Assembly (NCBI RefSeq): GCF_003334405.1
Contig: NZ_QOWM01000005.1
DNA length: 64,000 bases
Strand: one strand, 5' to 3'
From: Escherichia coli
GTDB lineage: Bacteria > Pseudomonadota > Gammaproteobacteria > Enterobacterales > Enterobacteriaceae
Part shown: one piece after another, positions 1-47,811 of the stretch
Layout: every line of letters begins with the position of its first letter
How positions within the stretch are numbered: the stretch's first letter is position 1
Translations under genes and position numbers: made by a program
The notes under the pieces: model-generated
Databases searched by the model: none
The model's input: only the letters and a program-made list of their open reading frames with translations
Told to the model about the DNA's origin: nothing

Positions 1-453
1 GAACTCGTTGATTTTGCCTGCACCTAACAGTTGGATCAGCTCCGCCAGCGCATTGTGATAAATATCGTAATTACGTTTGATCTCTGCCGCTGCGGCGGTG
101 CTCTGACGCGGGTCACGCGGCAACGCTTCGTAATCCGCCCAGTTTTTTTCCGCCTGTTTCAGCGAAATACTGGCACTCTCCATCAGCTCAGCAACGGTTG
201 AACCGCTACCAATATTATTCTGATCCATCATGTAGCGGATACCCGCGCGGTTGAGGGTGTTACGCGTCTGCAACAACGCGACCCAGCTGCCATTCAGCGT
301 GGATTGCTGCTGGCGAATGGTTTGTAAAACAGTGAAATTTTCTTTGTCATTCTTTAAGGCATTAAAGAACAGACCGCCTGATGTCAGTTGTAAAAGGCCA
401 AAAACGGCCAAAACCAGCAGTAAGCTGGTCACAATTTTGATACGTTTTAACAT
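1..453 (-). CDS. tsr: methyl-accepting chemotaxis protein I (serine sensor), N-terminal part; gene continues beyond window start
   Basis: Reverse translation from 453 gives [40 protein letters not shown]..., recognisable as the Tsr N-terminus; no stop before position 1. Confidence 0.85.
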
Positions 454-483
454 GGTTTCTCTTTCCTGTGGACCGATGCAAGA

Positions 484-510
484 TTTTCGGCCAGGAAAGG
501 AAAAACTTTA
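484..510 (-). promoter_or_regulatory. sigma-28 (FliA)-type promoter upstream of tsr
   Basis: On the minus strand reads TAAAGTTT-N11-GCCGAAAA, matching the class 3 flagellar promoter consensus TAAAGTTT-N11-GCCGATAA. Confidence 0.55.
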
Positions 511-601
511 TGAATATCCCGCGGAGATTACGCCGAGTAATTTTATTCACACTCTGAATTTAAAAAGCCATTATTTACATAAATTACTCACAATATAAAT
601 A

Positions 602-617
602 TGTGATATGAATCACA
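602..617. promoter_or_regulatory. CRP-like binding site in the tsr/btsT divergent intergenic region
   Basis: TGTGA-tatgaa-TCACA, perfect match to the CRP core consensus, embedded in a longer palindrome 597-623. Confidence 0.5.
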
Positions 618-681
618 TATTTATCGTCACTTAAACGACGCCTTTGCCGCTCAACCGCAAAACTGACCGCTTACATCCCTA

Positions 682-710
682 AAATAACCACTCAGTTATT
701 TACCTTACTT
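682..710 (+). promoter_or_regulatory. BtsR (YehT, LytTR-type) direct-repeat binding site upstream of btsT
   Basis: ACCGCTTA-N13-ACCACTCA, matching the recalled motif ACC(G/A)CT(C/T)A repeated with a 13 bp spacer. Confidence 0.5.
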
Positions 711-829
711 TACGCGCGCGTAACTCTGGCAACATCACTACAGGATAGCGGTCAATTTACCTCCTCAAACGCAACGCAAACCTAGAACGGCTTCGGCCAA
801 CTATTAATCAATACATGCCAGGTTTTACT

Positions 830-2980
830 ATGGATACTAAAAAGATATTCAAGCACATACCCTGGGTGATTCTCGGAATCATCGGTGCATTCTGCCTCGC
901 GGTAGTTGCATTACGTCGGGGGGAGCACGTCAGCGCCCTGTGGATCGTGGTCGCCTCTGTGTCGGTGTATCTGGTGGCGTATCGCTACTACAGTCTGTAC
1001 ATCGCCCAGAAGGTGATGAAACTCGACCCCACGCGCGCGACGCCTGCGGTTATTAACAACGACGGTTTGAACTACGTTCCGACCAACCGTTACGTGTTGT
1101 TTGGTCACCACTTCGCCGCTATCGCCGGTGCTGGTCCGCTGGTGGGTCCGGTTCTCGCCGCGCAGATGGGCTACCTGCCTGGCACGCTGTGGCTGCTGGC
1201 GGGGGTCGTGCTGGCCGGTGCGGTTCAGGACTTTATGGTGCTGTTTATCTCCTCTCGCCGTAATGGCGCATCTCTTGGTGAGATGATCAAAGAAGAGATG
1301 GGACCAGTACCGGGGACTATCGCGCTGTTTGGCTGTTTCTTAATCATGATCATCATCCTCGCCGTCCTGGCGCTGATTGTGGTTAAAGCCCTGGCCGAAA
1401 GTCCGTGGGGTGTCTTCACCGTTTGCTCAACCGTACCGATTGCGCTGTTTATGGGTATCTACATGCGCTTTATTCGTCCGGGGCGTGTGGGTGAAGTCTC
1501 TGTCATTGGTATCGTGCTGCTGGTTGCCTCTATCTACTTCGGTGGCGTGATTGCTCACGATCCGTACTGGGGTCCGGCACTGACCTTTAAAGACACCACC
1601 ATTACCTTCGCGCTGATTGGCTATGCGTTTGTTTCCGCACTGCTGCCAGTGTGGCTGATCCTCGCACCGCGCGACTATCTGGCAACCTTCCTGAAAATCG
1701 GCGTTATCGTCGGCCTGGCGCTGGGTATCGTGGTGCTGAACCCGGAACTGAAAATGCCTGCCATGACCCAGTACATTGACGGTACTGGCCCGCTGTGGAA
1801 AGGCGCTCTGTTCCCGTTCCTGTTCATCACCATCGCCTGTGGTGCGGTATCTGGCTTCCACGCGCTGATCTCTTCCGGTACGACGCCAAAACTGCTGGCT
1901 AATGAAACCGACGCGCGTTTCATCGGCTACGGCGCAATGCTGATGGAGTCCTTCGTGGCGATTATGGCGCTGGTTGCTGCGTCCATCATCGAACCGGGTC
2001 TTTACTTCGCGATGAACACCCCGCCTGCTGGCCTTGGCATCACCATGCCTAACCTGCATGAAATGGGGGGCGAGAACGCGCCGATCATCATGGCGCAGCT
2101 GAAAGACGTTACCGCACACGCGGCAGCGACCGTCAGCTCCTGGGGCTTCGTGATTTCGCCAGAGCAGATCCTGCAAACCGCGAAAGACATTGGTGAGCCT
2201 TCTGTCCTGAACCGTGCAGGTGGTGCGCCGACGCTGGCGGTAGGTATCGCTCACGTGTTCCACAAAGTGCTGCCGATGGCTGACATGGGCTTCTGGTATC
2301 ACTTCGGTATTCTGTTCGAAGCACTGTTCATCCTGACCGCGCTGGATGCGGGTACCCGTTCTGGCCGCTTTATGCTGCAAGACCTGCTGGGTAACTTCAT
2401 CCCGTTCCTGAAAAAAACCGACTCTCTGGTTGCCGGTATCATCGGTACTGCGGGCTGTGTGGGTCTGTGGGGCTACCTGCTGTATCAGGGCGTGGTCGAT
2501 CCGCTGGGCGGCGTTAAGAGCCTGTGGCCGCTGTTCGGTATTTCCAACCAGATGCTGGCAGCCGTAGCGCTGGTACTGGGCACCGTTGTGCTGATTAAGA
2601 TGAAGCGCACCCAATACATCTGGGTAACTGTTGTTCCGGCTGTATGGCTGCTTATCTGCACCACCTGGGCGCTGGGCCTGAAACTGTTCAGCACCAACCC
2701 GCAGATGGAAGGCTTCTTCTACATGGCAAGCCAGTACAAAGAGAAGATTGCTAACGGTACTGACCTGACGACGCAGCAGATTGCCAACATGAACCACATC
2801 GTTGTGAACAACTACACCAACGCAGGTCTGAGTATTCTGTTCCTGATTGTGGTGTACAGCATCATCTTCTACGGTTTCAAAACCTGGCTTGCGGTGCGTA
2901 ACAGCGACAAACGTACTGACAAAGAAACACCGTACGTTCCAATCCCGGAAGGCGGCGTGAAGATCTCTTCGCACCACTAA
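830..2980 (+). CDS. btsT: pyruvate/H+ symporter, CstA family
   Basis: ORF 815..2980; start placed at MDTKKIFKHIPWVILG to give 716 aa; polytopic membrane protein recognisable as YjiY/BtsT. Confidence 0.9.
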   Translation: MDTKKIFKHIPWVILGIIGAFCLAVVALRRGEHVSALWIVVASVSVYLVAYRYYSLYIAQKVMKLDPTRATPAVINNDGLNYVPTNRYVLFGHHFAAIAGAGPLVGPVLAAQMGYLPGTLWLLAGVVLAGAVQDFMVLFISSRRNGASLGEMIKEEMGPVPGTIALFGCFLIMIIILAVLALIVVKALAESPWGVFTVCSTVPIALFMGIYMRFIRPGRVGEVSVIGIVLLVASIYFGGVIAHDPYWGPALTFKDTTITFALIGYAFVSALLPVWLILAPRDYLATFLKIGVIVGLALGIVVLNPELKMPAMTQYIDGTGPLWKGALFPFLFITIACGAVSGFHALISSGTTPKLLANETDARFIGYGAMLMESFVAIMALVAASIIEPGLYFAMNTPPAGLGITMPNLHEMGGENAPIIMAQLKDVTAHAAATVSSWGFVISPEQILQTAKDIGEPSVLNRAGGAPTLAVGIAHVFHKVLPMADMGFWYHFGILFEALFILTALDAGTRSGRFMLQDLLGNFIPFLKKTDSLVAGIIGTAGCVGLWGYLLYQGVVDPLGGVKSLWPLFGISNQMLAAVALVLGTVVLIKMKRTQYIWVTVVPAVWLLICTTWALGLKLFSTNPQMEGFFYMASQYKEKIANGTDLTTQQIANMNHIVVNNYTNAGLSILFLIVVYSIIFYGFKTWLAVRNSDKRTDKETPYVPIPEGGVKISSHH

Positions 2981-2988
2981 CCGTGTTT

Positions 2989-3016
2989 AGCCCCGCTTCG
3001 GCGGGGCTTTGTTCTT
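2989..3016 (+). terminator. rho-independent terminator after btsT
   Basis: GC hairpin agccccgc-ttcg-gcggggct followed by a T-rich run. Confidence 0.55.
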
Positions 3017-3029
3017 ATCAGAGTGAACT

Positions 3030-3233
3030 ATGTTTGGTAACTTAGGACAGGCAAAAAAATATCTCGGCCAGGCGGCGAAGATGTTGATTGGCATTCCAGA
3101 CTACGACAACTACGTCGAGCATATGAAGACCAACCATCCCGACAAGCCGTACATGAGCTATGAAGAATTCTTCCGCGAACGCCAGAACGCACGCTACGGC
3201 GGCGATGGTAAAGGCGGTATGCGCTGTTGTTAA
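3030..3233 (+). CDS. yjiX: small conserved protein YjiX (DUF466 family)
   Basis: 67 aa ORF immediately downstream of btsT, same strand; conserved partner of cstA-like genes. Confidence 0.8.
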
Positions 3234-3243
3234 TGGAGAGAGC

Positions 3244-4200
3244 ATGAACCCGATTGCAGTTACCCTACTCACCGGTTTTTTAGGCGCGGGCAAAACCACC
3301 CTGCTGCGCCATATTCTTAACGAACAACACGGCTACAAGATTGCCGTGATTGAAAACGAATTCGGCGAAGTCTCCGTTGATGATCAACTGATTGGCGACC
3401 GCGCCACGCAGATCAAAACGCTGACCAACGGCTGCATCTGCTGTTCGCGCTCCAACGAGCTGGAAGACGCACTACTCGACCTGCTGGATAATCTCGACAA
3501 GGGCAATATTCAGTTCGACCGTCTGGTCATTGAATGCACCGGCATGGCCGATCCCGGCCCGATTATTCAGACCTTTTTCTCCCATGAGATTTTATGCCAG
3601 CGCTACCTGCTGGACGGCGTGATTGCGCTGGTGGATGCGGTACATGCCGATGAGCAGATGAACCAGTTCACCATCGCCCAGTCCCAGGTTGGCTACGCCG
3701 ACCGTATTCTGCTGACGAAAACCGACGTCGCAGGCGAAGCAGAGAAACTGCGTGAACGCCTGGCGCGCATCAACGCCCGCGCACCGGTCTACACCGTTAC
3801 CCACGGCGATATCGACCTGGGCCTTCTGTTCAACACCAACGGTTTTATGCTGGAAGAAAACGTCGTCAGCACCAAACCGCGTTTCCACTTTATCACGGAC
3901 AAACAAAACGATATTTCGTCGATTGTGGTGGAACTGGATTACCCGGTAGATATCAGCGAAGTTTCCCGGGTGATGGAAAACCTGCTGCTGGAGTCGGCGG
4001 ATAAACTACTGCGTTACAAAGGGATGCTATGGATTGACGGCGAACCTAACCGCCTGCTATTCCAGGGCGTCCAACGCCTCTACAGCGCCGACTGGGACCG
4101 CCCGTGGGGCGATGAAAAACCGCATAGCACGATGGTGTTTATCGGGATTCAGTTGCCGGAGGAAGAGATTCGGGCAGCGTTTGCGGGGTTGAGGAAGTAA
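3244..4200 (+). CDS. yjiA: COG0523/CobW-family GTPase (metal-binding)
   Basis: ORF 3160..4200; start at MNPIAVTLLTGFLGAGKTT (Walker A GAGKTT); CICC metal-binding motif. Confidence 0.9.
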   Translation: MNPIAVTLLTGFLGAGKTTLLRHILNEQHGYKIAVIENEFGEVSVDDQLIGDRATQIKTLTNGCICCSRSNELEDALLDLLDNLDKGNIQFDRLVIECTGMADPGPIIQTFFSHEILCQRYLLDGVIALVDAVHADEQMNQFTIAQSQVGYADRILLTKTDVAGEAEKLRERLARINARAPVYTVTHGDIDLGLLFNTNGFMLEENVVSTKPRFHFITDKQNDISSIVVELDYPVDISEVSRVMENLLLESADKLLRYKGMLWIDGEPNRLLFQGVQRLYSADWDRPWGDEKPHSTMVFIGIQLPEEEIRAAFAGLRK

Positions 4201-4210
4201 TTTTGGATGA

Positions 4211-4245
4211 TGGCCGCCATGTGGCGGCCTGAATTATTTTTTGTT
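4211..4245. terminator. hairpin plus T-tract between convergent yjiA and brnA
   Basis: ggccgccatgtggcggcc inverted repeat followed by ttattttttg. Confidence 0.45.
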
Positions 4246-4536
4246 CTGATCGCGCAGCATCGCTTCACGTAAAATTGCGTTCAGGCGAGTTTGATAGCCT
4301 TTACCTGGTCGCTTCAACCATTCCATCACATCAGCATCAATACGCACCGAAGCCTGAGTTTTCAATGGCCGATAAAACTTACCGCGTTCGGCGTTAGACC
4401 ATTGCTCATCGCTGGAAGGTGGGATATCACTGTAATCAATATCTTCGTCGGATTTATTCGCCAGCGCCTTCAGTTCGGCCTCATGCTGCACATCGAGTGT
4501 AGAGGAGGTCCCTCGTTTATGTTTAACCATGCTCAT
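4234..4536 (-). CDS. BrnA-like antitoxin (DUF4415-type)
   Basis: ORF 4234..4623 trimmed to MSMVKHKRG...; start overlaps the stop of the upstream toxin reading frame, typical toxin-antitoxin coupling. Confidence 0.65.
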   Translation of the reverse strand: MSMVKHKRGTSSTLDVQHEAELKALANKSDEDIDYSDIPPSSDEQWSNAERGKFYRPLKTQASVRIDADVMEWLKRPGKGYQTRLNAILREAMLRDQNKK

Positions 4537-4808
4537 AGCGATTCCTCTCTTTACGATCTGCTTTTCGTGCACTGATGATTCGAATAATTTCATTTCCGCT
4601 TTCGAAACGGATGGTATGCGCAACCAGAATAACCACGATGCCGTAATGTCTGCCAGCGATACTCACCGTTTTCTATGCGTTCTTGCTGTGACAAATGTTG
4701 TGGATCATCAAACAATAACACCGCATCTTCAAAGCGGATGCCATGTTTCACCCGATTACTTTTGGCCTTGTTTTCATCCCATTCAAACTCCATTGGCATA
4801 ATTGCCAT
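4523..4808 (-). pseudogene. BrnT-like toxin (DUF497 family) interrupted by a +1 frameshift
   Basis: N-terminal frame (ORF 4590..4826) gives MEFEWDENKAKSNRVKHGIRFEDA...WQTLRH then runs out of frame; the C-terminal part GIVVILVAHTIRFESGNEIIRIISARKADRKERNRYEHG is in another frame ending at 4523. Confidence 0.55.
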
Positions 4809-4997
4809 CCCTAATTGTATATACAAAAATGTATCTACAATTATTCTGCAATTATAGCGTTGATGTTGGAAATAGCATCACGTTTCGAATAATCAACCAT
4901 GAAATTGACAATGAGTAAGTTGGACTTGATTCATCCAATAGAATTTCTCGCCTGACATGGCACACTAAACACCTCGCTGTCGGGTAATGACTCCAAC

Positions 4998-5501
4998 TTA
5001 CTGATAGTGTTTTATGTTCAGATAATGCCCGATGACCTTGTCATGCAGCTCCACCGATTTTGAGAACGACAGTGACTTCCGTCCCAGCCTTGCCAGATGT
5101 TGTCTCAGATTCAGATTATGTCGCTCAATGCGCTGAGTGTAACGCTTGCTGATAACGTGCAGCTTTCCCTTCAGGCGTGATTCATACAGCGGCCAGCCAT
5201 CCGTCATCTATACCACGACCTCAAAGGCCGACAGCAGGCTCAGAAGACGTTCCAGTGTGGCCAGAGTGCGTTCACCGAAGACGTGCGCCACAACCGTCCT
5301 CCGTATCCTGTCATACGCGTAAAACAGCCAGCGCTGACGTGATTTAGCACCGACGTAGCCCCACTGTTCGTCCATTTCAGCGCAGACAATCACATCACTG
5401 CCCGGTTGTATGCGCGAGGTTACCGACTGCGGCCTGAGTTTTTTAAGTGACGTAAAACCGTGTTGAGGCCAACGCCCATAATGCGTGCACTGGCGCGACA
5501 T
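4998..5501 (-). pseudogene. insB: IS1 insB reading frame with an internal in-frame stop
   Basis: ORF track splits it into 5208..5501 (97 aa) and 4998..5207 (69 aa) in the same frame, separated by a TAG codon directly followed by ATG. Confidence 0.55.
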
Positions 5502-5695
5502 CCGACGCCATTCATGGCCATATCAATGATTTTCTGGTGCGTACCGGGCTGAGAGGCGGTGTAAGTGAACTGTAGTTGCCATGTTTTACGGCAATGAGAG
5601 CAGAGATAGCGCTGATGTCCGGCAGTGCTTTTGCCGTTACGCACCACGCCTTCAGTAGCGGAGCAGGAAGGACATCTGATGGAAATGGAAGCCAC
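5420..5695 (-). CDS. insA: IS1 InsA
   Basis: 91 aa [43 protein letters not shown]... Confidence 0.9.
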
Positions 5696-5751
5696 GCAAG
5701 CACCTTAAAATCACCATCATACACTAAATCAGTAAGTTGGCAGCATTACCC

Positions 5752-5847
5752 GGATTCCATAATGATTCCACGCCCCGTTATGACAAATCTGCCGCCGATC
5801 TTGCCTGGCAAAGGACACTGAAATGGTTCGATAAATATCTCTCCTGA
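5752..5847 (+). pseudogene. 3' remnant of a dienelactone-hydrolase-like gene truncated by IS1
   Basis: Frame directly abutting the IS1 end reads [35 protein letters not shown], resembling the C-terminus of DLH-family hydrolases; only 31 codons. Confidence 0.3.
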
Positions 5848-5992
5848 TAGGTTTATCTCTTACGGGATTACGTCTTAAACAAGCATGAAAAAATAGCGTG
5901 CGCAAAAGTCGTTCTTTGCCTAAAATATCGCTATATATGGCGATATATAGCGAATAAAGTGAACGATGAATAACCATTTTGGTAAAGGCTTA

Positions 5993-7225
5993 ATGGCGGG
6001 ATTAAAAGCAACGCATGCCGCCACGCTGTTTTTCCCGATGGAGTTGATTTTGTATGATTTTGCCGCGTACCTGTCGACGGACCTGATTCAGCCGGGGATC
6101 ATTAATGTGGTCCGTGATTTTAATGCCGATGTCAGTCTGGCCCCGGCAGCCGTCAGTCTCTATCTCGCGGGCGGTATGGCGTTACAGTGGCTGCTGGGGC
6201 CGCTTTCCGACAGGATTGGCCGCAGGCCGGTGCTGATTACCGGGGCGCTAATATTTACCCTTGCCTGCGCTGCGACAATGTTCACAACGTCTATGACACA
6301 GTTTCTTATCGCGCGTGCAATTCAGGGCACCAGTATCTGTTTTATTGCCACCGTTGGTTATGTCACGGTGCAGGAGGCGTTCGGCCAGACAAAAGGGATC
6401 AGGTTGATGGCGATTATCACCTCCATCGTACTGATTGCGCCGATTATTGGCCCGCTTTCCGGCGCAGCTCTGATGCACTTTGTGCACTGGAAAGTCCTTT
6501 TTGCCATCATTGCGGTTATGGGGTTTATCTCATTTGTTGGCTTACTGCTGGCGATGCCAGAGACGGTGAAGCGCGGCGCGGTTCCATTTAGCGCCAAAAG
6601 CGTCTTGCGCGATTTTCGTAATGTCTTTTGCAATCGGCTGTTCCTCTTTGGCGCAGCAACCATCTCTTTAAGCTATATCCCAATGATGAGTTGGGTGGCT
6701 GTCTCGCCGGTGATCCTGATCGACGCGGGCGGCTTAACAACTTCGCAGTTCGCCTGGACACAGGTTCCGGTGTTCGGCGCGGTGATTGTCGCGAATGCCA
6801 TCGTGGCGCGTTTCGTTAAAGATCCAACCGAACCGCGCTTCATCTGGCGTGCCGTACCCATTCAACTGGTCGGCCTCGCGCTGTTGATTATCGGCAATCT
6901 GCTGTCACCGCACGTCTGGCTGTGGTCGGTGCTGGGCACCAGTTTGTATGCTTTCGGGATTGGTTTGATCTTCCCGACCTTATTCCGCTTTACGCTTTTT
7001 TCCAATAACTTACCGAAAGGGACCGTCTCCGCATCGCTGAATATGGTGATCCTGATGGTGATGTCTGTCTCGGTCGAAATCGGCCGCTGGCTGTGGTTTA
7101 ACGGCGGTCGCTTGCCGTTTCATCTGTTAGCCGTCGTGGCGGGCGTTATCGTCGTTTTCACCCTGGCAGGATTGCTTAATCGCGTGCGCCAACATCAGGC
7201 TGCCGAGCTGGCGGAGGAGCGGTGA
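5993..7225 (+). CDS. mdtM: MFS multidrug efflux transporter
   Basis: ORF 5966..7225; 12-TMS MFS protein recognisable as MdtM (YjiO); start chosen to give 410 aa. Confidence 0.85.
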
Positions 7226-39979: not shown

Positions 39980-40468
39980 TTACCAGTTGAAAGTGGGTAA
40001 ACCCGGCAGGCATTCAGCGCTGGCATCCAGATGAATGAGACTGACGCCATAACGTCGGGTAAGTGTGATAACCAGACGACGGAACGTTTTTGACAGCCCC
40101 AGGCGTTTAAGCCGCAGAACCGGATATGACCACGCATCGGTACGTAACAGATATCCGCTACCTGTGAAATGAATCCATTCTGATTCACCAACGTCACTGG
40201 TCTGATGCGACAGCGAGTACAGCCAGGCGTTATCCTTTTCCGTGATATGTGCGGTACTGCAGCGTATGCCGGCAAGGGTTGCAAACGGTGGTAGTGTGCA
40301 GGTTGACTGTTGGTCGGATTCCTCCACCACGCGGAGTGAATAACCGTTTTCAGCGACCTTGTTAATCAGTTCAGTGAGATTAACACCATCGACGTCAACG
40401 ACAATTCGCCCCATGTTCAGTGCCTGCACATTAATTCTGTCGGCTTCCAGCATCAGGGAAAGTTTCAT
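39980..40468 (-). CDS. YeeW-like (DUF5983-type) protein
   Basis: 162 aa, start overlaps the toxin gene stop by 4 nt. Confidence 0.45.
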
Positions 40469-40839
40469 CGTTTCTCCGGATGCTTACCCAGGGTAATGTT
40501 ATTTACCGTTCTGTAATTGTCGCGGGTCATCAGGCCGGTCGCCCTGCGAGCCCGGAGGATATCAATACTGTTTATTAACTGAGAGCGGGGACAAGTGCTG
40601 AATCCCGGCTGGTCGGTACGCACCAGCGCGTATTTTTCCACGAGAAAATTCACCGCATCACACAGTGAAATGCCAGCTTCAATATGCTGCTCAATCACAC
40701 GTTCATCGGCGAACGGTGTGTCATTCAGTGTAAGGCCGTAATGCTGGCCCAGTAGTCGGGAGAGCAGAGTCTGCCAGATGGTGACGGGAGACGGGCAGCT
40801 CGATGCCTCCCGTACGTGTGTATCGGGTAATGTTTTCAT
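40465..40839 (-). CDS. CbtA/YkfI/YpjF-family toxin
   Basis: 124 aa; [45 protein letters not shown] highly similar to recalled CbtA. Confidence 0.8.
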
Positions 40840-40928
40840 ACTGAAGGTTTTCCTGATATGCAGAGATGAAAAATGGAAAAGTGGCGTGGTGAAAGCACCA
40901 GGCCGGAGCAGAAGGTTATTCCGGTGGT

Positions 40929-41297
40929 TTACTTTTTCGTTTCGGGCGTCGGATAAACAGCCAGATAAACGTAACCACCGCTACCGAGAGTGTCAGCTTT
41001 GCAGGTCAGACCTTTTGCATACAGCGTGACGGTATGCTGATGGCGGGGATTCAGTTCACCGCTGGTGAGCATGAGTTCCAGTTGTTTCATCAGCAGCGGA
41101 AAGGCCTGGTCCAGGTGGTACGCATCTGCATCGCTGAACAGGCCTCTGATACCGGCGCGGTCGGCAAGGTAATGCAGGCGGTTACCCTCCTGCACCAGAC
41201 GGGCGCCGAAACAGGGCGTCACTGTGCAGGGTAGTCTCCACCAGGGATGGTCGTCATTGTCATCGGGATGCGTTGTCCCGGAAAGTGTGTCTGACAC
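40929..41297 (-). CDS. CbeA/YeeU-family antitoxin
   Basis: ORF 40929..41405 trimmed to GTG start (VSDTLSGTT...) for 122 aa; [34 protein letters not shown]. Confidence 0.8.
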
Positions 41298-41459
41298 GAT
41301 AAAATCCTCACAGAAAATCGGTGAATGATAGTTTAACGATGACGGGTCAGCCGGCGCGCAGACCGGCTTCGGTAAAGGTGTATTCGTTGATGAGCAGGAC
41401 CTCATCCACAGCGGCGTCTGAGCTCAGCCAGTCGTACTCGTTTTCCGGGTGACGGAACA

Positions 41460-41681
41460 TCAGTTCAGGGTGACGCTCATCAGCCGGACATACGGACCAA
41501 AACTGTCCTTACGGCGTTCTGCAAACACGGCCAGCACACCGGGAATATCCTGCACTTCACGACCGGTATACGCTTCAGCACTGCCGTGCCAGCGGTATTT
41601 GCCGGTACAGAACGGAAAAAGACGGGATGCCGGATGCTGACGGTGAATACGCATGGCTTCGCCACGGGTGATGATTTTCAT
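41460..41681 (-). CDS. YeeT-like (DUF987) protein
   Basis: 73 aa MKIITRGEAMRIHRQHPASRLFPFCTGKYRWHGSAEAYTGREVQDIPG... Confidence 0.65.
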   Translation of the reverse strand: MKIITRGEAMRIHRQHPASRLFPFCTGKYRWHGSAEAYTGREVQDIPGVLAVFAERRKDSFGPYVRLMSVTLN

Positions 41682-42149
41682 AGTGGGATACCTCTGAAGA
41701 CAGAAGATAAAAGTGAAAACAGGTGTGATGTGGTTGTGACGGGTTAAAGCAGACCATGTTCGGCAAAGGAGAAAACCTGGCTGCCACCGACTATCAGATG
41801 GTCCGGCACCCGGATAGCTGGAGGTACCGTCATGAGAGTTGAGCAGAATAATTTCAGGGACATGTTCTCCGTTTATCTCTCCGGCCCGCCGCAGACGCAG
41901 CATGTGTTTTGTGTATCCCCGGCGGCCCGGGTCGCGCACACGGGTCTGGCAGGCGAAGAATGGCTGAAAGCCTTCCCGCTGCAGGCTTTCCAGTACGGTG
42001 ATGGTGGGGATGTACGTATAGTTCTGGCTTCGGGACGTGTGTTTATCTTCCCCGAAAATCCCCGGCACATAGTGCATCAGTTCTTCGTGTGTCAGCGGAC
42101 GGTCACGGCGTATCTGGTTCGCATAACCAAAACGACTGGCTAGTCGCAT
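41682..42149 (-). pseudogene. 5' fragment of a DUF932-like (YfjQ-type) gene, frameshifted and fused in-frame to the yeeT-like ORF
   Basis: First ~120 codons of ORF 41460..42149 (MRLASRFGYANQIRRDRPL...LLNSHDGTSSY) look DUF932-like, then lose resemblance. Confidence 0.4.
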
Positions 42150-42560
42150 AATTTGCTCCTTATCGGTGGTTAAGATTTACTGGTGTAATAAATGAAAAAG
42201 CCACGTCTCCCGGAGAAGACGCGGCCTGATGGGTGAAATGAATGACGTTTATTGTCTGAGAAGACCGTCACTGGCGAGCCGCGTATTAAGCACCTTTCCG
42301 GCATCGGGTTCAGAATTCCGGCAGCGCCAGCGTCGCTGACCTTCCGCGTTGCGGATAACCCGACGGAAATGCATTCCCGGGTCATCCTGGATAAACACAT
42401 TGCGGTAAGCGGTTATGACAGCAACCGCCTGCCCGTATGAGAAAGATCCTTCAGCCAGGACATACTCTGTGTAACCCGGCATATCTGTTTTCTCCTGATA
42501 AATAAAAAGCCTCTGCCACGCGTTGTGACAGAGGCTGAAGCATGAAACTGACTTCAGGGA

Positions 42561-43016
42561 TCAGTTAACGTTTTTTCCGGAAACGGTAATCAGCAGTGGA
42601 TGGTAGTCCTGGGGATTGAAAACCGATAACGGCAGACTGACACGATGGCCGTTACTTTCTTCAGTTGCTTTGATGATTTCGGTTGTGGCGACATTTTCCA
42701 CGCACTCCGTTTCCAGAAATGCGTCTGTGGTTCGCGTGGCATTACTGTCACCAAAAGCTTCCGTTTCCATTTTTCTGGTCACCAGCGTCTGACCATATTT
42801 GTCTTTGAGTTGCAGAGTGATGGTGAGGGGGCCAAATCCTTCATCGTTTCCGCCATTATCCAGCCGGAACTGGTAAGCACAAATATTTCCCGGGAGCCAT
42901 ATCGTATCTGTATTGCGTATACTGATGTAACGTTGATCCTGTGCCCGGAGTGGGGCAGACCACGTTAACCCCAGAATGAAGGCGGTAATCATGCAGGTTT
43001 TGAACAGGTGAATCAT
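42561..43016 (-). CDS. hypothetical secreted protein
   Basis: 151 aa with N-terminal signal-peptide-like hydrophobic segment ending ...APLRAQ. Confidence 0.45.
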   Translation of the reverse strand: MIHLFKTCMITAFILGLTWSAPLRAQDQRYISIRNTDTIWLPGNICAYQFRLDNGGNDEGFGPLTITLQLKDKYGQTLVTRKMETEAFGDSNATRTTDAFLETECVENVATTEIIKATEESNGHRVSLPLSVFNPQDYHPLLITVSGKNVN

Positions 43017-43091
43017 GGTATTTACCTCTCTGAGTCATGACGATGACACTGACAAATCAGGTGATAAAGCGTAAAAGGCGCAGAATAGCCG

Positions 43092-44057
43092 TTATGCCGG
43101 TAACTCCGGGGGTAATGCTTCTTCCAGTCGGTTAACCATATTGCCGAGATGGGATGCATCATATTCCATGACGGGGCGTTGCCTGATGATACTGACCACC
43201 AGTGGTTTGATTAACATATTGGTCGCGGCCCGTTGTTGTATACCGGCGGCGAAAATGATCTCCAGAGCATTCTGATCGATAACACGGGCCAGATTCTCGT
43301 TCAGATTTTCAATCTCATGTCCGGTCAGCAGGAAACTGCCGGCAAGCCATGTCACCTGCTCCTGAATCATTGCCAGAATTTTGACGCGATCTTCTTCAAC
43401 CAGCGCTCCGGCAATTTTTCCTGATACAGCGGAGGCAATCATTCCCCCCAGAACACCGCCAACCACACGCCCTGTCAGTGCACCAAATGGTCCCAGTGGA
43501 CTGAACAGTATTCCGCCCGCCACTGACCCGACAGCACCACCTGCCACACCGGAAGATGCCACGGCAAGATTCCTGATGAACTGCGTACCGGAGATCCGTC
43601 CCCGCAACATTTTGATCATGTCAGGGCCGGTTGTGACAGCTACCAGTGCCAGAGATGTCACCAGCGTACCCTTCATCACTTTGTTCAGGGCACTGATATT
43701 TCCTGCACCGGTCCCCTTCTGAAGAGCCAGTCGAACAGTCGGGCTGGCAGTCGAAAAATCAATGTGCTTCAGCATACCCTGAACAACACTGAGCCGGTGG
43801 AGTTGCTGGGTTGTGACGTAGACAGCCAGTGTGCGGGTGAAGGTTTTTCCTGCCTGGACAGCAGCTGTCTGCAGGGCAGCATCGCGATCGCCGGTGCTGA
43901 GCCAGAAGACCGATGCCGTCAGGGCAAAACTGATCCCTCCGGCCGCCAGACTGACAACCGAACCCTCGGCAATATCATAAGTGACCGATTCGATGGTCCC
44001 GAACCGGGTGATATTACGGGCCTGAGTATAAGTCAGATGAGCCATACACGCGGCTTC
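43092..44057 (-). pseudogene. C-terminal fragment of an unidentified glycine-zipper-rich island protein, fused in-frame to a truncated IS66 tnpC
   Basis: Last ~320 codons of ORF 43092..45068; [41 protein letters not shown]; unlike IS66 TnpC C-termini. Confidence 0.35.
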
Positions 44058-45950
44058 CGTTATTCTGCCGGATTCGTATAACGCCCGGTAACCACCGTAA
44101 GCATCGGCCTGAAGCACACCGCTGTAACCGGCCAGGTGATTTTGTGGATGGATACCTTTCCGGTCCGGACTGTACGCGAACCAGACCGCCGGGGGCATCT
44201 GTGAACCGGCGTTACGGTCATCACGGACGTAGACCCACAGCCGGGCTGTCCGGGTTTTACCGCTGCCCGGCTCCTGGACCGGGACGGGGATATCATCAGC
44301 ATGGACTTTACCGGGCATCAGCACATACTGGCGCAGGACGTCATACAGCGGCTCCAGCAGTTCAGCAACAGCACCTGTCCAGCGCCCCAGTGTGGCACGG
44401 CTCAGCTCCACTCCCTGACGACGGTATATTTCTGACTGGCGGTATAACGGCAGATGGTCTGCATATTTCCCGGTGACAACATGGGCCAGAAGCCCCGCTC
44501 CGGCATAACTGCGTGCAATGGGTTTTGAAGGTACTGGTGCCTGCACGATATGGTCGCACCGGCAACAGGCCTGTTTCGGACGTTGTGTTTCGATAACCTT
44601 AAAGGCGCTGCTGATAAGCTCCAGTTGCTCTGACACATCACATCCCAGAGAACTGAGTTCACCACCACAGGCAGGACAGCATTCCTCTTCCGGCCGGATA
44701 ACCCGGGTTTCACGGGGAAGTGAGGCCGGTAACGGTTTACGGGCTGAAGACTGGCGCAGGGCGGATGGCAGTACCGGGTCATATTGCTCACCCAGCGTTT
44801 CCGCCATTTCTTCCTGAAGTGCGCTGATTCGCTCCTGTGCTTCCTGTATCTGCCGTTCGGTTTTTGCACGAAGTTTTTCTGAGCTTTTACCGAACTGCAT
44901 ACGTTGCAGTTTCGCAACCAGCGCCTTCAGCCGGTTGATTTCGGAAGCATAAGCCGCCACCCGCTGTGAGAGCAGGCGGTTGTATTCAGCCATCTGGCGG
45001 ATGGTGTCCTGTTGCGTCTGCAACAGTGCCCGCAGGCGGGCGTTCTCATGAGCAAGTGAGGTGTCCATATCCTCACTTTACAACGGGTTATATGCGGATT
45101 CCAGCGCGTTCCGTTCGTTTCGGGTGCTTCCAGTTGATACCTTCAAGAAGCATGGATAACTGAGCCGGAGTAAGGTGCACCTTGCCGTCACGGGTGACTG
45201 GCCAGACGAAGCGGCCCCGCTCCAGGCGTTTGGTGAAGAGGCACAGTCCGTCACTGTCAGCCCACAACACTTTTATCTGGTCACCCCGGCGTCCGCGGAA
45301 GATGAACAGGTGTCCGGAGAACGGGTCATCCTTCAGGACGTTCTGAACTTTTGATGCCAGGCCGTTAAAGCCATTTCGCATATCGGTGATACCTGCAACC
45401 AGCCAGATACGCGAACCTGCAGGGAGAGATATCATCAGTGGCTGCTCCCTTTTATTTCGCGGATAAGTGTCTGTAATAACGCCGGCGTCAGTTTACCTTT
45501 AAGCCTGAGAGTTCCGGCCGGCAGAACCAGCTCACAACACAGACTGTCGGACGGTGTATTTATCTGCTCTGGTTCCTGTGCGGGGGCCGGGATTTTATTA
45601 TCCGGCTCCGGCGTTAACGTCACGGGAAGCAGTGCCGGCATATTTTTTCCGGAAGGCAGCAGGCCACCTTTCCGGTATTGATGGCGCCAGTTGAAGAGCA
45701 GGTTATCGTTGATTCCGTTTTCCCGGGCGATCTGCGCCACACAGGCTCCGGGCTGCAGTGACTGCTCCACTAAGGCGATTTTAAACTCATAAGGGAAGTT
45801 GGGCCGCCGGGGACGTTTTTTTACCACGGGGGCTTCGGATATAACGGTGCTTTCAGGACGTACGACTGGTACCGTGGAAAATTGTCCGTAACCCTCAGTA
45901 TCAGCTGTGAGGTAACGTTCCGGCACGGGACGCTCCGCTTCAATGGCAAT
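44058..45950 (-). mobile_element. IS66-family element, copy 1, truncated at the tnpC 3' side
   Basis: tnpA-like (45435..45926), tnpB (45088..45435; WLVAGITDMRNGFNGL) and first ~337 codons of tnpC (CCPACGG zinc-finger, through EAACMAHL); boundaries approximate. Confidence 0.65.
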
Positions 45951-47811
45951 GTCAGCGAAAAGCTCCTGACTCTGCTGATACAGGAACTGAAGCGATGATC
46001 CCGTTACCTTCCGGGACCAAAATTTGGCTGGTTGCCGGTATCACCGATATGAGAAATGGCTTCAACGGCCTGGCTGCGAAAGTACAAACGGCGCTGAAAG
46101 ACGATCCCATGTCCGGCCATGTTTTCATTTTCCGGGGCCGCAGCGGCAGTCAGGTTAAACTGCTGTGGTCCACCGGTGACGGACTGTGCCTCCTGACCAA
46201 ACGGCTGGAGCGTGGGCGCTTCGCCTGGCCGTCAGCCCGTGATGGCAAAGTGTTCCTTACGCAGGCGCAGCTGGCGATGCTGCTGGAAGGTATCGACTGG
46301 CGACAGCCCAAGCGGCTGCTGACCTCCCTGACCATGCTGTAAATCTCTTTATCCTGGTTGTCACAGAATAAGCCCGGTAAAATACGGGCTTATGAACGAC
46401 ATCTCTTCTGACGACATCTTCCTGCTAAAACAGCGCCTGGCCGAACAGGAAGCGCTGATCCACGCCCTGCAGGAAAAGCTGAGCAACCGGGAGCGCGAAA
46501 TAGACCATCTGCAGGCGCAGCTGGATAAACTCCGCCGGATGAACTTCGGCAGTCGTTCCGAAAAAGTCTCCCGCCGTATCGCACAAATGGAAGCCGATCT
46601 GAACCGGCTTCAGAAAGAGAGCGATACGCTGACTGGTAGGGTGTATGACCCGGCAGTACAGCGTCCGTTGCGTCAGACCCGCACCCGTAAGCCGTTCCCT
46701 GAATCACTACCCCGTGACGAAAAGCGACTGTTGCCTGCGGCGCCGTGCTGCCCGAACTGCGGCGGTTCACTGAGCTATCTGGGCGAGGATACCGCCGAAC
46801 AGCTGGAGTTGATGCGTAGCGCATTCCGGGTTATCCGGACGGTACGGGAAAAACATGCCTGTACTCAGTGCGATGCCATCGTGCAGGCACCTGCACCTTC
46901 GCGGCCCATCGAGCGGGGTATCGCCGGACCGGGGCTGCTGGCCCGCGTGCTGACCTCGAAGTATGCAGAGCACACCCCGCTGTATTGCCAGTCAGAAATA
47001 TACGGCCGGCAAGGTGTGGAGCTGAGCCGTTCACTGCTGTCAGGCTGGGTGGATGCATGCTGCCGGCTGCTGTCTCCGCTGGAAGAGGCGCTTCATGGCT
47101 ATGTCATGACTGACGGCAAACTCCATGCCGATGATACCCCGGTCCAGGTACTGCTGCCGGGTAATAAGAAGACGAGGACCGGGCGGTTGTGGGCGTATGT
47201 TCGTGATGACCGCAATGCCGGGTCAGCGTTGGCACCTGCAGTGTGGTTCGCTTACAGCCCGGACAGAAAAGGCATCCATCCGCAGACTCATCTTGCTTGC
47301 TTCAGCGGTGTGCTGCAAGCGGATGCGTACGCCGGGTTCAACGAGCTGTATCGCAATGGTGGGATAACGGAAGCTGCCTGCTGGGCTCATGCCCGCCGAA
47401 AGATCCACGATGTGCACGTCCGCATCCCGTCAGCACTGACGGAAGAAGCCCTGGAGCAGATCGGTCAGTTGTACGCCATAGAGGCGGATATAAGGGGAAT
47501 GCCGGCAGAGCAGCGGCTTGCTGAACGTCAGCGAAAAACGAAACCGCTGTTGAAATCCCTGGAAAGCTGGTTGCGTGAAAAGATGAAGACCCTGTTCTTC
47601 GGCTCTGGCCATGGTGGTGAGCGGGGAGCGCTACTGTACAGCCTGATCGGGACGTGCAAACTGAATGACGTGGATCCAGAAAGCTACCTTCGCCATGTGC
47701 CTGGCGTCATAGCAGACTGGCCGGTCAACCGGGTCAGCGAACTGCTTCCGTGGCGCATAGCACTGCCAGCTGAATAACACATCCCCGTCAATACGGCCCT
47801 CGCTGTACGCT
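45951..47811 (+). mobile_element. IS66-family element, copy 2, lacking most of tnpA
   Basis: tnpA C-terminal tail (...EKLLTLLIQELKR), tnpB 45995..46342, tnpC 46392..47777 (461 aa), terminal GTAAGCG-type end at about 47805-47811; TnpB only ~75% identical to copy 1. Confidence 0.65.

Follow-up and report, generated by a model that had tools for sequence, protein, structure and literature searches.

The locus and its insertion element

The window, as the analysed stretch of 64,000 nucleotides of Escherichia coli DNA is called here, contains the gene order tsr-btsT-yjiX-yjiA-brnA-brnT-IS1-dienelactone hydrolase remnant-mdtM-yjiN, and its first 40 kb are collinear with the genome of E. coli CFSAN061772. 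The IS1 is located between yjiA-brnAT and mdtM-yjiN, within the immigration control region (ICR), a variable stretch from yjiA to yjiN; the immigration control region of K-12 holds mrr-hsd-mcr (PMC12707154).

The element is a complete IS1 of the IS1F / Shigella type, assigned by its ends and its identity to other E. coli copies. It occupies 768 bp on the minus strand (4983..5750), the strand of all its features described below, and its ends read GGTAATGCTGCC...GGAGTCATTACC. The left terminal inverted repeat, IRL (5728..5750), forms the insA-proximal end and matches the other end at 20 of 23 positions, while the right repeat, IRR (4983..5005), overlaps the end of insB'. The gene insA (5420..5695) is intact and encodes a repressor of 91 amino acids with a zinc ribbon and a helix-turn-helix (Pfam PF03811 and PF12759). 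The slippery A6C motif AAAAAAC at element positions 307-313 (5438..5444) is the site of the programmed -1 frameshift that yields InsAB'. No other IS1 copy was present in the scanned window, and an Rfam scan of window positions 4000-7000 at E ≤ 0.1 matched no RNA family.

The insB' frame is interrupted by an amber codon, TAG, which replaces Trp163 (TGG) of InsAB' and is evident both from the list of open reading frames and from the alignment (5208..5210). The change that creates the stop is a G-to-A substitution at element position 542, window position 5209. On the plus strand the codon appears as CTA at 5208-5210, and the next codon on the minus strand is ATG (5207-5205). The open reading frame list contained accordingly two minus-strand frames in the same register, one of 97 amino acids ending with ...LSAFEVVV* (5208..5501) and one of 69 amino acids starting with MTDGWPLYE... 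(4998..5207). An earlier note on this DNA had described an IS1 copy whose insB is split by a TAG directly followed by ATG, and the two frames span exactly the interval 4998-5501 that it gave. The upstream part of insB', between the frameshift site and the stop (5211..5444), encodes InsAB' residues from about 85 to 162, including D109. The downstream part (4998..5207) consists of 69 codons and a stop, begins at the native Met164 and contains D166 and E191, and the InsAB' that is translated does not include this part.

For a comparison with protein families the frameshifted InsAB' was read conceptually through the stop, which gave 232 amino acids. This protein matched the Pfam domains Zn_ribbon_InsA (PF03811, 3e-19), HTH_Tnp_IS1 (PF12759, 4e-27) and DDE_Tnp_IS1 (PF03400, 4e-74; residues 102-232), and its score with NCBIfam model NF033558 was 245 bits (cut-off 100), in agreement with the identification as IS1. 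The length of about 768 bp, the imperfect repeats of about 23 bp, the insA/A6C/insB' layout and the domains are all those of the IS1 family. The family features that the element lacks are an uninterrupted InsAB' frame with a D-D-E triad and a target-site duplication. We take the triad to be D109, D166 and E191. Ohta et al. (2002) reportedly found the second D and the E to be separated by 24 residues, and the D166-E191 spacing agrees with this interval. The TAG thus separates D109 from D166 and E191 and lies three residues before D166. The element is thus a member of the family by descent, though presumably a non-autonomous one.

The brnT toxin gene (4523..4799, minus strand) lies outside the element, beside its IRR end, and is itself frameshifted. 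In comparison with CFSAN061772 and most strains, 11 bp are deleted between 4646 and 4647, and BrnT is shifted after about residue 51. The 277-bp frameshifted allele is also annotated in strains LHM10-1 and SCU-172. The brnA gene (4234-4536) is intact.

Authenticity and annotation of the stop codon

The 768 bp of the element were found with 100% identity in many independent complete E. coli assemblies. A 314-bp probe that combined the TAG with the flank on the brnT side gave matches with zero mismatches in 520 genomes, and elements of the window type occupy the same place in strains 89-3156, 94-3024, H10407 and CFSAN061772. A sequencing error as the source of the TAG was therefore rejected, as hundreds of independent assemblies carry the identical sequence. 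The earlier note had named TGG upon resequencing as the result that would overturn its reading; the TAG is genuine in the window, and TGG occurred only in a minority of the orthologous loci of other genomes. RefSeq labels identical loci as 'programmed frameshift; internal stop', and the element is thus an already known and annotated IS1 pseudogene of the long-known IS1F type.

Alignment with reference IS1 variants, the check proposed in the same note, showed TGG in the close intact relatives, while the window copy carries TAG. Examples with TGG at codon 163 are a plasmid of Shigella boydii Sb227, E. coli EC2257 and the protein WP_094106546.1.

Relationship to known IS1 elements

The K-12 IS1F, which we take to be the 'type 4' IS1 described by Umeda and Ohtsubo in 1991, is situated at the fecI-yjhU locus and agrees with the window element in its length of 768 bp, its end sequences and its insA / A6C / insB' layout. 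The fecI-adjacent copy of the K-12 strain ER2683 was identical to the window IS1 at 763 of 768 positions and shares the G-to-A change at 542 and the amber codon at W163. The two copies lie at different chromosomal loci and differ by five substitutions (positions 156, 210, 501, 677 and 703); the InsA changes H34P and T52K are present in K-12 IS1F and lacking in the window IS1. RefSeq assigns an internal stop to both, although PGAP names the window-type copy 'IS1 family' and not 'IS1F family'. With at least 99% identity to K-12 IS1F, about 90% identity to IS1A and the amber at codon 163, the window copy has the features of the IS1F subtype. K-12 IS1F is listed in PMC8867978 under GenBank accession X52538.

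An even closer relative is an intact IS1 of Shigella and E. coli, represented by WP_094106546.1 and the copy on plasmid pSB4_227 of S. boydii Sb227. It is identical at 766 of 768 positions, with the same ends and organization, and differs from the window IS1 only by a G at position 501, which is synonymous, and by TGG at codon 163. Its transposase is annotated as intact, and the element is repeated many times per genome and carried by many Shigella plasmids. IS1A and IS1E of K-12, the active laboratory IS1 elements, belong to the same family and have the same length and gene organization. Copies labelled IS1A showed about 90 to 91% nucleotide identity to the window IS1, and in contrast to it they carry TGG at the homologous codon and are autonomous.

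Distribution of the amber allele

For the detection of the TAG allele a 55-mer centred on element position 542 was used, in which every 28-base megablast seed must include the allele. It matched 4285 places in 3109 of 5426 genomes (57%), with 1 to 6 places per genome, and 37 of these places were on plasmids. The specific haplotype of the window, 501A/542A, was counted with a 96-mer and perfect matches only; it occurred at 776 places in 617 genomes, with up to four per genome. The median number of amber copies per genome was 1, while the TGG probe matched a median of 9 places, a value that also takes in IS1A-type copies, which were matched by the TGG probe only.

The A at position 542 is shared by the K-12 IS1F beside fecI and by a copy on plasmid pHeN100_02. 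All of six further TAG matches sampled at random were fecI-adjacent copies, and the fecI-adjacent amber copy travels with the fec island. Amber copies with the window haplotype were also present at strain-specific junctions, namely yedJ'-hchA' in QEC11-421 and fdrA'-gcl in HH107, and the TAG allele was found on about 40 plasmids of E. coli, E. fergusonii, Enterobacter and Klebsiella. An alignment of related copies showed that IS1 elements are mosaic at sites 156, 210, 501, 542, 677 and 703. Since every TAG haplotype seen corresponds to the intact type plus 542A and a few private changes, the simplest reading of these sequences would be that the amber arose once, in the intact Shigella type, and spread from there to several loci.

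A further 51 plasmid records from Klebsiella, Enterobacter, Citrobacter and Serratia matched the TAG 55-mer with 90 to 95% identity, which suggests IS1A/B-like copies in which TAG replaces the same Trp codon. These copies may have arisen by an independent TGG-to-TAG mutation or as recombinants with a crossover at the site, and the inference of a single origin is weakened because such recurrence or recombination is possible.

Of the six fecI-adjacent copies, four had a second amber, CAG to TAG at element position 322, which falls in the insB' frame shortly after the frameshift site. In the overlapping insA frame the substitution is synonymous (R89R). This second stop is consistent with neutral drift of insB'.

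Junctions, rearrangements and gene conversion

The element together with 300 bp on each side, covered to at least 80%, was recovered from 1020 of the 5426 genomes, about a fifth. An 8- to 9-bp target-site duplication was absent around the window IS1, whose flanks read ...ctcgctgtcg and cggattccat..., and none was present at 15 related IS1 copies or at any amber copy examined. The IRL end cuts off a dienelactone hydrolase (yghX-like) gene, of which a 3' remnant is left (5752..5847, plus strand), as annotated by RefSeq at identical loci. The missing target duplication and the truncated hydrolase gene indicate that a deletion or rearrangement associated with IS1, and not a simple insertion, produced this junction.

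The 273 bp from the IS1 to the body of mdtM (5751-6023), which take in what is left of the hydrolase gene as well as the first codons of the local mdtM, showed 98.5 to 98.9% identity to the yghX-yghW region at other places in E. coli chromosomes. The N-terminus of MdtM in the window differs from the MPRFFARHA... of the alternative haplotype, which places one boundary of the variable ICR within the 5' end of mdtM.

TGG was found at the same brnT-side junction in 51 genomes. In the TGG copies sharing this junction in strains 675SK2, AR_0069, LHM10-1 and SCU-172, the far side consisted of K-12-like DNA upstream of mdtM, of ytiD or of yjiC. From the sequences, these varied far sides look like the products of repeated one-sided IS1-mediated deletions into the mdtM-iraD region. 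The window-type junction on the hydrolase side was combined with an intact 501G/542G element perfectly in five genomes and with a one-base difference in eight. In a sample of strains with this junction AGR5151 was intact, and SCU-104 and CM2010-0578/1 had 501G together with TAG. The three haplotypes GG, GA and AA at positions 501/542 are thus all present at the window locus.

Strain 806883-9-2019 has TGG together with 573C, 597A and 636C at the window locus, and this tract is a clear case of gene conversion from another IS1 variant. As a TGG conversion tract exists at the same locus, gene conversion can remove the amber, and perhaps it can also install it. The locus illustrates how IS1-driven remodelling and gene conversion act in the immigration control region.

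Mobility and interpretation

In a BW25113 derivative whose only remaining IS1 copies were the four non-consensus ones, IS1B, IS1C, IS1D and IS1F, IS1 insertions were not detectable (PMC12428005). With InsAB' overproduced in trans, IS1F was the source of 44% of the insertions of non-consensus IS1 elements, and transposase of the IS1A/IS1E type can mobilize IS1F in trans (PMC12903888). A few plasmids of the Addgene repository also contain IS1F insertions (PMC8867978). In the accessible portions of PMC12428005 and PMC12903888 the immobility of IS1F is put down to amino-acid changes, and a nonsense codon is not mentioned there; nor was an explicit published statement of it found. The amber is the simplest explanation of the immobility of K-12 IS1F.

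The earlier note had called the copy probably transposition-defective, and this is borne out by the position of W163* upstream of D166 and E191 and by K-12 IS1F, which carries the same TAG and is essentially immobile in its native state (PMC12428005). Its further description as fixed and scar-like was correct only in part. The insertion is common to about 1020 of 5426 complete genomes at the same locus, but 'scar-like' is too strong, because the element has kept both ends, insA and the frameshift site intact, amber copies occur at strain-specific sites and on plasmids, and IS1F is mobilized in trans. Taken together, its interpretation was essentially right, with the correction that the stop is an allele common to IS1F-type copies at many loci rather than a private decay of the window copy, and that it does not show this copy to be inert debris.

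We consider it likely, with a probability of about 0.85, that the window IS1 is a complete but non-autonomous element of the IS1F / Shigella type that can be mobilized in trans, and that its amber is an allele of a lineage. The element's own promoter would drive the synthesis of InsA, a repressor and end-binding protein, and the -1 frameshift at AAAAAAC would yield only a truncated InsAB' of 162 residues. This product should retain the zinc-ribbon and helix-turn-helix DNA-binding domains and the first catalytic Asp; having lost D166 and E191, it is expected to be incapable of strand cleavage or transfer. The TGG-to-TAG change would then have been inherited throughout an IS1 lineage that includes K-12 IS1F. 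Because both inverted repeats are intact, amber copies should remain substrates for InsAB' supplied by other IS1 copies, and by analogy with K-12 IS1F the window copy can probably be moved in this way. Indirect support for the window IS1 itself comes from the identical haplotype, which occurs on a plasmid and at loci specific to single strains. IS1 copies may in addition exchange the amber by homologous recombination and gene conversion, and TGG would at times be restored at the window locus. For amber copies without a target duplication, transposition of the copy itself, acquisition of the amber by conversion and IS1-IS1 recombination at a new junction are all possible.

It is decidedly unlikely that the stop arose as a one-off decay in a fixed copy after insertion and that the element plays no further part in IS1 dynamics. 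The presence of the insertion at one locus in about 1020 genomes, without a target duplication, would agree with such a history, and the haplotypes GG, GA and AA at the locus could be arranged as an in-situ series from GG to GA to AA. However, the identical change is found in the fecI-adjacent IS1F, at yedJ'-hchA' and fdrA'-gcl and on plasmids, and the 3109 genomes with the allele are about three times the 1020 with the window locus. The intact ends, insA and frameshift site and the trans-mobilization of K-12 IS1F also speak against a dead remnant.

Very improbable is an autonomous element in which the stop is bypassed by read-through of the UAG, by an amber suppressor tRNA or by reinitiation at the AUG to give a two-piece transposase, although such bypass may occur at trace level. 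The UAG-AUG is preceded by GAGG 11 nt upstream, the A after the stop provides a weak termination context, and amber copies reach six per genome. Many laboratory strains carry supE44. The plasmids in which IS1F insertions were recorded had been grown in laboratory strains (PMC8867978). Nevertheless, the BW25113 derivative is suppressor-free, lacks IS1A and IS1E and contains IS1F, and it yielded no detectable IS1 insertions (PMC12428005). The second amber at 322 is what would be expected of an unselected frame, and the median of one amber copy per genome, compared with nine matches of the TGG probe (IS1A-type copies included), also argues against autonomy.

That the host retains the element as a regulator, with the intact insA and perhaps InsAB'(1-162) damping other IS1 copies in trans, appears hardly probable at all. 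It would suit the intact insA of the window IS1, the substitution at 322, which stops insB' and leaves InsA unchanged, and the presence of the amber allele in 57% of the genomes; InsA is known to repress IS1 in trans (PMC12428005). The divergence between copies, less than 1%, is however far too small for a dN/dS analysis, the changes H34P and T52K in insA of K-12 IS1F are unlike purifying selection, and the prevalence is accounted for without any function if the amber copies hitch-hike on the fec island and on the ICR haplotype.

Returning to the non-autonomous, trans-mobilized lineage as the preferred reading, one amber allele marks a widespread sublineage of IS1, which is useful for counting and modelling IS activity in E. 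coli. A more far-reaching proposal, which we regard as unlikely, is that the amber IS1F lineage acts as a successful non-autonomous 'hyperparasite' of intact IS1, or that its InsA and dead InsAB' are retained by the host as a damper, or both. In experiments the ends of IS1F served better than the ends of the other non-consensus copies. If either role were true, it would help to account for one nonsense allele in 57% of the complete E. coli genomes. The significance for biology at large is small.

Other differences in the window

The fec locus of the window does not contain the fecI-adjacent IS1F of K-12 and many other strains. At the corresponding position (49864/49865), which precedes fecI (about 50075), some 30 bp and 70 bp of the sequences on either side of this IS1 in strain E2865 are also gone. 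In comparison with CFSAN061772, a further 1.2 kb or so with IS remnants and an ariR-like gene is missing at the same point. Conversely, about 6.5 kb of the window (40153-46642) are absent from the otherwise collinear CFSAN061772. This segment codes for genes of a CP4-type prophage remnant, with YeeU/YeeV-like toxin-antitoxin open reading frames, and for transposases of the IS66 family, one of which (658 amino acids, 43092-45068) is apparently fused or disrupted.
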